From assembly GCF_032062105.1 (NCBI RefSeq), contig NW_026939674.1, positions 434,001-498,000 on the forward strand: a DNA stretch of 64,000 nucleotides, read 5' to 3'. Shown here piece after piece: positions 88-12,790 of this stretch. Positions within the stretch are counted from its first letter, which is position 1. Each line of letters starts with the position of its first letter. This DNA is from Saccostrea cucullata. Its lineage: Eukaryota. Below the pieces are notes generated by a model. It was not told where the DNA came from. It did no database searches and saw nothing but the letters and a program-made list of their open reading frames with translations. The position numbers and the translations under genes are program-made.

Positions 88-3000
88 CTAGAGCATTGGG
101 ACCGGAACTCCTCCTGGTCGTCCAAGTGGTATGTTAACATTAGATCTCATCGCTGTAAATCAGAAAATAAATCTATTAAATATATATTTTTTGACACATC
201 ATTTCTTTTATTCCAAAAACAATAAAAGGTGACAAAAGTTTTAGAATTGATCACATTTAACGTTTCAGATGTTCCAATTTATACCAAATACTAAAATATA
301 ATGCTCTTTAATCAAATGAATATTAGAAAATTATTTTCATTCTTTTGAAAAACAATGATCTCTTGATTATTATGTTAGTATACTAAGAGCTACTGGCAAC
401 TACAAATACATCATTGTTTTTTAATGTACAAAACAGTGAACCATAAAAAACACAAAGTACACGAACATGGGATTCGAGAAGCTTTCTACAGGGTTTCGGG
501 TCAAAAACATAAATAGAAGGGGAAAACATAATGTGAACGAAATCTAATTTTGCGTTTAAAGTCCTTTAAGGTGGTCCCAGGAGGGAATTTACCTGTTTCC
601 CTTAGTCAAATACTGGAAGAATAGAATAATAAATTTAAAAGCATTATCCGAAAAGAAAACTGAAATCTTATATGGTGCTAGTAAACTAGAGAACCTTACG
701 TCTTCTCTGCAACTTTAATATGTTATATTTGTCTTTTTAAAAAAATCTTGATTTTTGTAAATATTGCCATTGGAACGTGCACTCTTGTGCTCTAATGTAG
801 AGTTTTTCTCCTATCCTAAATTAACGAAAACAGAACAAAATGAAACTGCATTGCCGTTACAAGTTTTGTGAGTGAAGCGTTATTAATAATAGCAATATCC
901 AAACAGTGTTAACACTCATCCTTGATCTCTCTCAAGGTATTTACATACCACTGCTCTTGTATTCCATTCTAACTGTTTACTGTCAACAATCATAAATATG
1001 TCAAATATTATCGCCAATTAGCATTGATCCGAATAAACTATTGGCATATGTTGTGTTTTTGGAATTGTTTTCAAGAGACTTTCAAAAATAAAGAACATTT
1101 GTCTTAAAACATTCTACTTGATAAAAATTGATAAGTAAAAATACTATTTACCTACATCCTGAAGACGGCGATTAAATTGCAAATTAAAATTTGAATTATG
1201 TAAAGGCCTATTTTGTTGAGCAATTACTCTGGCGTTGGTACTAGAAAGATCCCCTCCGATCATTTCAGGAATACTGGAAACACCTCCTCGTCTAATCCCC
1301 TGCAGACTTACTCCACGACGAGGAATATTAAAGTTCCATTGAGGTTGAGGAGGTGTTGGTTGTTGAAAATTTGCCAGATTTGAAGTTCGGAATGAAGAAA
1401 TTTCCGGATGGACAGCGATTCCTCCTGGAAATAAATTCCGTTTTTGTCCGGAAAGACTTGGTTGTCCCACGCTGCTACCAACACTATCTATTATAGGAGG
1501 GGATGTCACAGGAGGCATAACCGTAGTTGTAGAAGGTAAAATTGTTGAAAAAGATTCAGTAGCCTGCATATTTATTACAGGAGTGTCAGACACTGTAACG
1601 ACATCACTATGCGCATGAACACTAGGGTCCCTCACAAGAATTATATTTGGGTCAGTTACTGAAGGAGCCGTGGGTTCTGTAGGAGGCGCTACATTTGGAT
1701 CCACCACAATAGGTTCTTGTGGAGGTGCTATATTTGGATCCATCGCAATAGGTTCAATGGGAGGTGTTACATTTGGATCCACCACGCTGGGTTCAGTCGG
1801 AAGCACAGCATTCGGGTCTATCGCGGTGGGCTCTGTTGGAGGTATTGCGTTTGGATCCACTACACTAACTGCTGGATCAGTTTTTATAACATTGCTTGGA
1901 GTTGTTGGTAGAAGTGCTGGCAGAGAAGTACTTCTTTGTTGAACTGTAATACGCGAAATAACTTGAATATTATAATTTGATGAGAGGAGTTCTAGATTTA
2001 CTACTCAAATATATATGATGTTAATTTCAATAACAAACGATTGAATAAAGGAAATAAACAAAATATGAAAGATGCACTTGTAGTCTGGTAGAATACGCAT
2101 TAACCTGAACATGCAAGAAATATGTAAATACTCAACGTGTTATATCCATTTATATATATAGGGTAGATATATTTCGTAAATAGCGTTACATCGCAACCTA
2201 CCTGGTGGTTCTCATGTAAAACTATACAATAAAATATCACTTTTATTACAATTTATCAAAACTTGAATGTAATCAAAAAAAAAGAATTTTGATTTCTGCC
2301 ACATCCAGGATTGCTAAATAACCACATGTATATGTATCCAAAAGGAGTAAATTTCGATATTTGCAAAAAGTGTTCATTTAAACATGGCCTAGGTCAAAAG
2401 CCATAAAATGGACACAAAGACGGATTAAAGTCTCAAACTTTTACCTGGAACAACATTTTGTTGTAATGATTTAAGGTCCATTCTGGACACCGTGTTAAGG
2501 TTTGGCGAAATGCTTTTGGATGTGTCTACAACAGCTGCACTTCCACTCGAGGGAACAGCCAATCCCGTAAGAATATTCTGCTTCTTGAAGAAACCATGAA
2601 GAATTTCTTCTATGAGAGATCTCAATGAATCCACATTCATAAAGGCGACTGTTGATGATGCAGTGGTCTTTGGGGCCGTAGCTGCTGGTTTGAGGTTTTC
2701 TAAAATCCTCATGTCTTTTGTTTTCACTGGAGTCAAAGGGGTCCGTTGCACTGGTTGTCTCTTGTTGCCTATAATCGTTAAATATATTTGATATTAAGTG
2801 ATGTTTCTATTTGATGACATAAGCAAGAAATGACAAAACCAGTATTCAACATTATTATCCATGGCATCTGATCCCATCTCTGATGTTTTAGAGGTCCATG
2901 TTTTTTTCAGCTCATCAGTTAGGGTGAATTCACCATGCATCGGATACCCTTGTACTTCAACAAGTTCTAGCGATATCGCTACCGACGGAAAATTATCAAA

Positions 3001-12000: not shown

Positions 12001-12790
12001 AAACACAACCGCTTAAAAATCATTATTGCCTCCCCTTCTTTGCAACTTGTTAACGCGTCTAAATTTAAAATCACAAATCACGAAGTCATTGAACAAACAC
12101 ATGACTCGTACATCGTGAGAGAGTCTTAGATGATGGTCAACCAAAAACCGGCATTGAAACCCAATCATGGGGTGATTTGACCGTTGATATGGCTGAGTTT
12201 GTGGTCTGATTTCCGCATACTTTATCAAAACATGACTTTCTTTTTGCGTATCAGAATACTAGTATTGTTTTCAGTGCTTGATATCTTCATTACATGCTAT
12301 GATTTTTGTTTCCTTCGATAAGAAGAAATCAAATAACGCATAGTCATATTATTTTTTTTCTTCCTAGAAAGAAGTCGTTAAGCATTCTAGCATTTAAATA
12401 ATTTAACAATACATTTGTTCTTTGCCAGTTTAAATTCATTGTATGCTTTAGACAAAGTTAAACTTAAATTGCGTTGCAACTCAACGCAAATGATGTGTTT
12501 TGTAGGCATCAAAAGAAAATCAAAATGTTCATCTGTATAGTAAAATAAGTCGATGGTATCCCCTATATAGATTTATGAAAAGTATCTACCGCAATTTAAG
12601 TGCAAGCATCTAACACGGCAATGCAAACTTAACTTATTCTTAAGGCAAAATCAAATTTCGCTTATTATCACCAATAATATATTTCAAATTAAGACATTTG
12701 TATTTTTTATCTCTAAAGTTAACAAGCAAAAATATACTTACCGAAACACAGAAGAAATATTCCTAGAAAATAAATCCCAAATTGTGACAT
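88..12790 (-). CDS. Uncharacterised large secreted low-complexity protein (~1463 aa); candidate extracellular/shell-matrix or adhesive protein
   Basis: Coding exons in transcript order: 12742-12790, 11254-11271, 11029-11052, 10464-10754, 10279-10329 (GC donor), 9749-9781, 8704-8811, 8299-8346, 4759-7347, 2445-2768, 1152-1943, 88-152. All have AG acceptors, all introns are phase 1, and the joined frame is open (4392 nt including TAG). The N-terminus MSQFGIYFLGIFLLCFALSQA looks like a signal peptide. An Arg/Gly-rich region follows, then N/Q/P/G/S/F-rich and S/T-rich regions and Pro-rich repeats; the C-terminus is ...GRPGGVPVPML*. AATAAA lies at 12-17 (minus). Function is inferred from composition only; small exons could be missed or miscalled. 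Confidence 0.8.
1666..1860 (-). repeat. Coding tandem repeat, 5 x 39 nt (13 aa, ~VDPNxxPPTEPxx)
   Basis: Translation: VDPNAIPPTEPTA IDPNAVLPTEPSV VDPNVTPPIEPIA MDPNIAPPQEPIV VDPNVAPPTEPTA. Confidence 0.9.
2922..3963. mobile_element. Non-autonomous TA-flanked TIR DNA transposon (Tc1/mariner/pogo-type) in an intron
   Basis: Ends GGGTGAATTCACCATGCATCGGA ... TCCGATGCATGGTGAACTCACCC (1 mismatch); TA at 2920-2921 and 3964-3965; internal copies of the CCATGCATCGGA motif at ~3113-3146 and inverted at ~3526-3562; no transposase ORF recognised. Confidence 0.85.
4985..5170 (-). repeat. Degenerate coding repeat, ~5 x 12 aa (GGIPKEISSTVT-like)
   Basis: GGIPKEISSTVT GGISEGVSLTKT GNIPTGLSSTIT ENVPIKSSPVS ENILTGISSSLT in the large exon. 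Confidence 0.65.
6625..6715 (-). repeat. Coding tandem repeat, 3-4 x 24 nt (GFPGSPQT)
   Basis: GFSGVPQT GFPGSPQT GFPGSPQT AFPGSPQN in the large exon. Confidence 0.9.
7944..8123. mobile_element. Decayed MITE
   Basis: Perfect 16-bp inverted repeat GCAACTTTTATTCGCG (7944-7959) / CGCGAATAAAAGTTGC (8108-8123) with internal TCGCG motifs; outer ends eroded. Confidence 0.65.

Follow-up and report, generated by a model that had tools for sequence, protein, structure and literature searches.

An alternatively spliced, conserved oyster gene and its likely product in the larval shell matrix

The window analysed here, 64,000 nucleotides of a Saccostrea cucullata contig, carries near its beginning a gene for a large protein made of compositionally distinct blocks, and the question it raises is what such a protein is for. 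The first-pass annotation regarded it as an orphan, assigned it to coacervation or self-assembly, and named shell matrix, cement, ligament and mucus as possible destinations. That interpretation is partly supported. What is directly established is the structure and alternative splicing of the gene, its composition and orthology, and the presence of ortholog peptides in larval shells in two families, adult shells being marked negative for them. [quoted passage not shown]

Gene model, splicing and copy number

The model, built from sequence, places 12 exons on the minus strand, from an ATG at 12790 to a TAG stop at 90-88, and encodes 1463 aa (Table 1). RNA contigs span 7 of the 11 introns, in line with the single large gene of ~1460 aa proposed earlier. 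All 11 introns are in phase 1, and one of them uses a GC donor (10278). An alternative with 11 exons, omitting the 24-nt exon at 11052-11029, would yield 1455 aa; the exon is needed because of the RNA joint 10754/11029 and of the N-termini of orthologs. Junctions of exons 1 and 2 are absent among the listed RNA joints, hydrophobic N-termini homologous to the exon 1 product occur in C. virginica and C. angulata, and the 1152/152 junction is based on the RefSeq models of four species. By its 100% identity over exon 9, the gene is the S. cucullata 'mucin-2-like' XP_062592106.1, the NCBI model of which begins within exon 7 (aa 164) and thus lacks aa 1-163, as well as 20 aa of the DPN repeat.

The same cassette exons, internal donor and alternative endings recur in the RNA contigs of Saccostrea and in the RefSeq isoforms of Crassostrea, and both sets include short isoforms devoid of the acidic block. 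The internal donor lies in exon 9, after 5728, and gives a 768-aa form; short endings similar to that of exon 969..979 are seen among C. virginica isoforms. Exon 9 has a single match in the genome, and searches of the own genome for paralogs, the results of which are lower bounds, returned no locus besides this one. The word share was 0.00 in 9 of the 24 listed RNA runs, 8 of these being from organism A, a value that is not proof of absence. At least 18 exonic differences, 9 synonymous and 9 not, are found among the 40 of 410 rows listed, a number too small for use.

Table 1. Exons and sequence elements of the gene, in window coordinates
Feature	Positions	Strand	Basis
Exon 1; start ATG 12790; most of predicted signal peptide (aa 1-16)	12742..12790	-	hydropathy
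Sole Tyr (aa 7) and sole Cys (aa 15), in exon 1	12742..12790	-	model translation
Exon 2, 18 nt; end of signal peptide, putative cleavage after aa 21	11254..11271	-	orthologs
Exon 3, 24-nt microexon; conserved mature N-terminus, sequon aa 27	11029..11052	-	joint 10754/11029 (run X2); orthologs
Exon 4, Arg/Gly-rich; ultraconserved island begins in its 3' third	10464..10754	-	
MS peptide VILTPVQDGAVR, aa 98-109, in exon 4	10554-10519	-	
Exon 5, 51 nt; conserved island, GC donor	10279..10329	-	RNA joints 10330/10472, 9780/10278
MS peptide LIGFLIPR, across exons 4-5		-	
Exon 6, 33 nt, cassette; in or out among Crassostrea RefSeq isoforms	9749..9781	-	
Exon 7; conserved island, sequon aa 188	8704..8811	-	RNA joints 8811/9749, 7346/8703
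Exon 8, 48 nt, cassette	8299..8346	-	kept in run X2 but spliced out in run X1; Crassostrea isoforms vary
Exon 9, 2589 nt	4759..7347	-	translation, RNA joints
24-nt tandem repeat, 8-aa QTGFP-type units, in exon 9	6625..6700	-	copy number varies among oysters
Near-invariant island aa 639-696, conserved sequon aa 662	5882..6055	-	modelled beta-hairpin, low confidence
Long helix aa ~1030-1072; basic stretch, then Leu at 7-residue spacing	4759..4882	-	structure model
Exon 10	2445..2768	-	RNA joints on each side, 3/4 runs
Second conserved amphipathic helix, aa 1113-1135, in exon 10	2643-2575	-	
Exon 11; DPN units, S/T stretch, conserved Arg-containing tail	1152..1943	-	
Five 13-aa DPN units, aa 1208-1272, 39-nt repeat	1857-1663	-	
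Alternative last exon, three residues and stop	969..979	-	RNA joint 979/1152 (run X2)
Exon 12, last coding, stop 90-88; common to long and short forms	88..152	-	joint 152/5728 (run X3)

Composition, predicted structure and conservation

Strongly hydrophobic 19-mers are confined to aa 1-26; therefore the protein is predicted to have a signal peptide but to lack a membrane anchor, in agreement with the earlier reading, with the conserved N-terminus and with the SignalP YES of the P. fucata entry. The 1445 residues of the mature chain comprise 52 Phe, 2 Trp, no Tyr and no Cys, the only Tyr and Cys of the model being part of the signal peptide. The chain itself, as had been claimed, can supply neither disulfides nor DOPA. 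The exclusion extends to fast-evolving linkers (1 Tyr or Cys seen, about 42 expected) and to orthologs, with 0 or 1 Tyr per sequence in 8 of 8. Quinones formed on other proteins could still, by established chemistry, attack those Lys and His residues that occur elsewhere along it.

Most of the blocks described from the letters alone were recovered, some in altered form. The basic block is clear (net charge +0.16 per residue over aa 19-225; 41 Arg but not one Lys within aa 19-244), as are the S/T-rich block (24% S+T over aa 731-1030, without tandem repeat, the only P-rich repeat of the protein being short) and the conserved Arg-containing tail. The N/Q/G/S/P block exists (aa 226-635; 27% N+Q, 6.8% F), yet the regular Phe spacing ascribed to it is restricted to the 8-aa repeat of aa 419-474, where it is 7-8 aa, against 1 to 224 elsewhere. 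Exon 9 thus holds this block with its Phe repeat, a beta-type island, a sequon cluster, the S/T block and the long helix; the latter, of about 45 aa, is not short as first stated. The 13-aa repeats are real, but their region (aa 1196-1290) is only mildly acidic, at -0.12 net charge per residue.

AlphaFold2 models, built on 7 and 9 close sequences, reach a mean pLDDT of 28.5 and 31.8 and show no globular fold; their single confident element is the long helix (pLDDT 75-89; aa 601-640 of the modelled sequence P0002). With so few close sequences behind the models, low pLDDT is no proof of disorder, and by a FoldIndex-type score just 43% of windows count as unfolded. The homodimer prediction for the two-helix region scored 0.01, a value that speaks neither for nor against a dimer.

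The orphan status does not hold. Orthologs were found in Saccostrea (XP_061172335.1, 'mucin-2-like'), in Ostrea edulis (XP_048730063.2) and in Crassostrea (LOC111112803 of C. virginica, formerly 'homeobox protein 5-like'; XP_019925005.1 and XP_052686393.1, 'myb-like protein I'), with 55-87% identity over exon 9, and also in P. fucata. Judged from the sequences, the RefSeq names mirror composition, not domains: all four whole proteins examined are without a Pfam domain above the cut-off, and in two ortholog sequences (P0049, P0060) no Pfam match of any kind, Myb and homeodomain included, appears at E up to 1. Eighteen conserved islands together cover 666 of 1463 aa, and one of them is kept across two families. 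This Arg island is 95% identical in C. virginica (aa 86-195); in P. fucata, the first 400 of 1678 characters of which were compared, three ungapped stretches counted by eye agree at 44/53, 19/25 and 14/15 positions. The oyster/Pinctada split is dated at 240-330 Ma (PMC6231486). Of 13 sequons, 8 are kept in every ortholog aligning there, the middle residue being changed in some, whereas the DPN repeat varies in number and sequence among oysters.

A profile of 829 positions, representing exon 9 only and hence leaving the N-terminal island outside, was searched against 1.84 billion proteins and gave 11 matches, 3 from oysters and 8 weak (E 1e-8 to 8e-4). The latter align through the 8-aa repeat only and were rejected as unrelated repeat proteins. 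The same profile matched no PDB sequence. A search with the island, among proteins of 370-1180 aa only, gave 4 matches, all oyster-type; a metagenome scan with it gave 551 pattern matches with none confirmed, and neither of two ESM Atlas queries gave a usable match.

Larval shell peptides and competing readings

In C. gigas and P. fucata alike, MS of D-stage larval shells, performed in two workflows after overnight cleaning with NaOH, detected peptides of the Arg-rich N-terminal island (Zhao et al. 2018, PMC6231486, Data S1, S2, S5, S6). Three peptides belong to the C. gigas entry TRINITY_DN38090_c0_g1_i1 (D_shape YES, adult NO), a 13-kDa fragment from a D-larva transcriptome, and three to P. 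fucata pfu_cdna2.0_066411 (D_shape YES, nacre NO, prism NO; 181 kDa, pI 11.4, signal peptide YES, no Pfam) (PMC6231486). Of the C. gigas peptides, two out of three recur unchanged in the S. cucullata model, for which 45 tryptic peptides of 7-30 aa are predicted. The entries share with it the mature N-terminus, the Arg island, the motifs that follow and a tryptic peptide, besides a signal peptide, a very basic character and the lack of Pfam domains; the P. fucata ortholog differs by a longer Arg/Asn/Ser stretch upstream of the island. All peptides of both species fall within the island, though the full 1678-aa P. fucata sequence stands in the same row; the MS evidence therefore covers the island, not the full chain in the shell. 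For C. gigas, further peptides were unassignable because the entry is a fragment. A protein of pI 11 can stick to shell preparations.

Neither entry has a name, BLAST hit or function assigned in the lists, and the pair is absent from the cross-species Table S1 (PMC6231486), apparently overlooked because the gene was not among the C. gigas gene models. Searches of paper main texts by locus, accession, RefSeq name and peptide gave 0 matches. The very basic Pfam-less type is usual in the P. fucata larval shell, since 8 of its 31 proteins have pI >=10 and no Pfam domain. Basic shell matrix proteins of the RLCD type without Pfam domains, to which many C. nippona adult shell proteins also belong, are likewise secreted, large (pI >10) and made of biased blocks, but the Saccostrea protein differs from them by its 18 conserved islands and by the exclusion of Tyr and Cys. 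Hallmarks of Pif/BMSP and nacrein (VWA, chitin-binding and carbonic anhydrase domains) are absent by Pfam.

Taken together, the favoured and probable reading is that of a predicted secreted, likely N-glycosylated, mostly disordered basic protein that likely serves as a non-covalent scaffold in the organic matrix of the first shell. Destination in an adult cement, ligament or mucus, as first suggested, would agree with the composition and with the RNA contigs of several studies that contain the gene, yet it is extremely improbable: its orthologs are marked absent for adult shell of C. gigas and for nacre and prism of P. fucata (PMC6231486), a name search, dependent on gene ids, of the tables for adult shell and mantle of C. 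nippona found nothing, and a second adult shell proteome supplement (cells compared over their first 400 characters) gave 0 peptide matches. These sets sampled shell and mantle, cement and ligament themselves being outside them, and the C. gigas 'adult NO' refers to an older proteome searched with gene models lacking the Arg-island region. A query of the C. nippona tables via calumenin ids, assuming synteny, found no neighbouring gene listed, and in the portions of the larval foot adhesive literature available no link was found. Mussel foot proteins are also secreted, basic and of low complexity, with coacervation proposed, but here there is no Tyr for DOPA, Arg takes the place of Lys, and no sequence match exists. 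A larval origin outside the shell proper (pellicle, periostracum, velum or mucus secretion), the very basic protein co-purifying with cleaned shells, is quite unlikely. The authors left soft-tissue contamination possible and both larval lists include cellular enzymes (PMC6231486), and the S/T-rich blocks with conserved sequons are mucin-like; against this stand the detection in two species by two workflows after NaOH cleaning and the lack of any Cys in the mature chain, which rules out the vWD, C8/TIL and cystine-knot domains. Gel-forming mucins of the MUC2 type, which also have a signal peptide, S/T/P-rich blocks and sequons, are defined by these domains.

How the chain would act is a separate matter. 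A generic sticker-and-spacer coacervate former, with Arg and Phe as stickers, opposite charge blocks and an exact sequence of little importance, is compatible with a larval-shell role, with the Lys-free Arg block, with Phe in the N/Q/G/S/P block and with the lack of a predicted fold. Yet the Arg block is kept letter by letter, the acidic block is weak, variable and missing in short isoforms, and Tyr, the stronger aromatic sticker, is excluded; such a mode is unlikely, and the earlier case for coacervation by segregated charge blocks is weakened. Cleavage of a precursor by proprotein convertases, the basic N-terminal piece entering the shell and the remainder being separate or a carrier, is in turn very unlikely. 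The restriction of MS peptides to the island would suit it, as would the dibasic pairs (RR or KR/KK) that aligning oysters keep at aa 118, 179, 213, 1051-1052, 1132 and 1437. However, the aa-118 pair is lost in P. fucata, the model has no R-x-K/R-R furin site, RR pairs are expected anyway in a block with 20% Arg, and the fragmentary C. gigas entry left other peptides without assignment. A neuropeptide precursor was considered as well and rejected, no repeated amidation pattern being visible by eye.

A putative polyanion-binding island

Exact conservation of the Arg island, along with short isoforms lacking the acidic block, fits better with a specific polyanion-binding element than with generic charge-block coacervation, that is, with a putative binding island carried on a glycosylated disordered spacer. 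In such a scaffold, the protein would be secreted by the shell field around the trochophore/D stage, and the island (aa ~97-207) may fold upon binding and grip a polyanionic partner, for which acidic shell proteins, acidic glycans or carbonate-rich mineral are guesses. The N/Q/S/T/P linkers with their conserved sequons might act as a hydrated spacer, while further weak contacts, made by the long helix as well as by the short conserved islands, could network the chains. Splicing would set the chain length, always retaining the Arg island, plus the last exon or a short ending.

Of the matrix proteins of the first larval shell, few are known from more than one species. This shell marks the stage at which oysters are most vulnerable to acidified water (PMC5824581). 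The number of shared larval shell proteins given by Zhao et al. is 12 (PMC6231486), and the present gene appears to add a further one. A bolder version, rather doubtful at present, would make it an overlooked core component of the first shell, with an undescribed Arg-rich domain of ~110 aa kept for at least 240 million years in a tanning-proof, soft hydrated phase. If so, a protein without Tyr and Cys, and without Lys in its basic region, would be spared the tyrosinase/quinone cross-linking of the shell field and would offer a soft phase for larval aragonite growth under a hardened pellicle, conserved alternative splicing setting the mesh size; were the Tyr/Cys exclusion to function in this way, a soft and a tanned phase would be seen to coexist in one shell field. 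Being single-copy and having a short, extremely conserved exon block, the gene lends itself directly to knock-out, antibody work and binding assays.

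Gene anatomy and splicing

Splice-site reading of the window yields 12 exons on the minus strand, from 12790 to 88, with an open frame of 1463 aa; all 11 introns are in phase 1, and a 24-nt exon is part of the gene. The predicted protein, counted after residue 18, has a mass of 153 kDa and a pI of 10.6, and carries its blocks in the order described by the first-pass annotation. The absence of Cys and Tyr from the mature chain likewise stands, the only Cys being at aa 15 and the only Tyr at aa 7, while the regular spacing of Phe holds in an 8-aa repeat (aa 419-474) but not elsewhere.

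That the exons form one gene is borne out by RNA contigs from four runs of a close relative (some 2-5% divergent in the listed exon pieces, mapped to window 1-13500), the listed joints of which span 7 of the 11 introns, though no contig covers the full transcript and neither strand nor expression level can be read from them. Three additional joints indicate skipping of exon 8, an alternative last exon, and an internal donor spliced to the last exon; the product of this donor is a 768-aa form in which the acidic repeats, the helices and the S/T block are all missing. This splicing pattern is conserved between genera, since Crassostrea RefSeq isoforms make the same choices. The S. cucullata genome measures 1.17 Gb; four genome searches returned this locus alone.

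Features of the probable shell protein gene and its surroundings (window positions unless contig is stated)
Feature	Position	Basis or remark
Intron joints with RNA support	1943/2445, 2767/4758, 7346/8298, 8811/9749, 9780/10278, about 10330/10472, 10754/11029	RNA contigs
Junctions absent among listed RNA joints	152/1152, 8346/8704, 11052/11254, 11271/12742	RefSeq models, other oysters
24-nt exon	11052-11029	
GC-AG intron 3' of exon 5	10278	backed by RNA joint
Alternative last exon	979	RNA contig joint
Internal donor	5728	RNA contig joint
High-copy repeat, intron between exons 9 and 10	~2860-4050	many loose ends
156-bp tandem arrays	34538-35724; 56013-56594	7.6 copies; 3.7 copies
Calumenin-like EF-hand gene	51515-47670, minus strand	
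Its two tandem homologous exons	~49288-49051; ~48997-48801	gap only ~54 nt
Axonemal dynein light chain gene exon	60422-60844, minus strand	PF10211, E 1e-28
Downstream neighbours (L003-L007)	contig 394024-424011	
Putative haem-NO-binding guanylate cyclase exon	contig 423301-424011	translation, by eye
Putative fibrinogen C-type domain	contig 416251-417012	translation, by eye
Putative Cys-rich receptor-like gene, two long frames	contig 394024-398109	translation, by eye

Relatives, conservation and residue exclusion

The protein is no orphan, contrary to the first supposition: among 7994 scored candidates exon 9 matches eight proteins, namely XP_062592106.1 of S. cucullata itself (100%), those of S. 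echinata, C. virginica and C. angulata, and four unnamed records; O. edulis (Ostrea) and C. gigas come in through the protein clusters. Their database names (mucin-2-like, myb-like protein I, homeobox protein 5-like) reflect no underlying domain; no Pfam family passes the cut-off in any of four whole proteins or five exon translations. Missing from XP_062592106.1 are residues 1-163 and 20 aa of repeat (window 12790-8790 and 1790-1725), and with them the signal peptide and most of a conserved island; gaps of this type can mask the gene in proteomic and BLAST comparisons.

In the ortholog alignment conserved islands alternate with variable N/Q/S/T/P linkers. Identity to C. virginica is 84% inside the 18 islands (666 aa) and 37% outside, a contrast partly built in because that same identity delimited the islands; the biggest (aa 86-195) reaches 95%. 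Eight of 13 sequons are retained in every ortholog aligning there, and one of the pair 793/794 is always retained where orthologs align.

The linker columns contain 940 distinct substituted residues, with no Cys and a single Tyr among them; single-base changes to the window's codons would predict ~17 and ~25, under a crude neutral model applied to non-independent species. That Tyr, present in O. edulis and an unnamed record, sits in the middle of a sequon. Below expectation, too, are Lys, Glu and Arg (ratios 0.39-0.44), no other residue coming near 0.04, and the 86 Phe-containing columns offer 102 alternative residues, none of them Tyr. Cys and Tyr are thus avoided in the oyster protein, beyond mere rarity.

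AlphaFold2 models of the 674-aa short form and of the 1058-aa protein from S. echinata have mean pLDDT values of 28.5 and 31.8, respectively, and show a single confident helix of ~45 aa; such values are compatible with disorder but no proof of it, because the alignments held just 7 and 9 close sequences.

Detection of orthologs in larval shell and possible function

Peptides of the 12-exon model retrieve two rows from the supplement of a larval shell proteome study (Zhao et al. 2018, PMC6231486): C. gigas TRINITY_DN38090_c0_g1_i1 (D-shape YES, adult NO) and P. fucata pfu_cdna2.0_066411 (D-shape YES, nacre NO, prism NO), three peptides each, with VILTPVQDGAVR (aa 98-109) common to both rows and the model. 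The Pinctada protein, listed with a predicted signal peptide, 181 kDa, pI 11.4 and no UniProt/Pfam matches, is identical at 44/53, 19/25 and 14/15 positions to ungapped stretches of the Arg-rich N-terminal island (aa ~97-207), and its first 400 residues contain no Cys, Tyr or Lys after the signal peptide, both by eye. The pair is absent from the 12 shared larval proteins of that study, because P. fucata proteins were compared solely with C. gigas gene models and the C. gigas entry has none; pfu_cdna2.0_066411 figures in Data S1 and S5 only, not in Table S1.

The gene therefore likely encodes a genuine and conserved larval shell matrix protein that has so far gone unnamed. The shell-matrix role first proposed finds support in the larva, with both species marked NO for adult shell. 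Against a shell assignment weigh the soft-tissue contamination allowed for by the authors, the cellular enzymes in both larval lists, and the mapping of all detected peptides to one region (PMC6231486).

A larval shell scaffold is the reading favoured here, with moderate confidence. From the anatomy, conservation and detection of orthologs in shell, all observed directly, we infer a mechanism in which the conserved Arg island would bind a polyanionic partner, glycosylated linkers would act as hydrated spacers, small islands and the helix would add weak contacts, and alternative splicing would set chain length. Generic coacervation of segregated charge blocks, as the first-pass annotation had it, is less likely to account for everything: conservation of the basic block extends to its exact sequence, and the acidic block is both weak and expendable. 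A bolder, less probable reading would have the protein form a tanning-proof phase. Against it, disordered proteins in general are commonly low in Cys. Nor does a tyrosinase annotation appear for any of the 31 larval proteins listed for P. fucata (PMC6231486). Two features give the scaffold candidate its interest: an Arg-rich island, not described before, is shared by oysters and pearl oysters, a conservation that had been overlooked, and Tyr and Cys are strictly excluded.

The main texts covered, which include few subscription papers, do not mention the gene by locus, accessions, RefSeq names or peptides, and it may be described elsewhere; the accessible text of a follow-up paper (PMC7747718) is likewise silent on the protein ids. 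A supplementary list of 101 larval shell proteins of C. nippona accompanies PMC12862220; the ortholog, with its expression, may be among them.

Neighbouring features

Downstream translations, read by eye, contain no cluster of similar low-complexity genes within 50 kb. The intronic high-copy repeat, with a summed contig depth of ~55-425 in all four runs, is likely a mobile element. The two 156-bp arrays apparently share one unit in inverted relative orientation, and the tandem exons of the calumenin-like gene are likely mutually exclusive.
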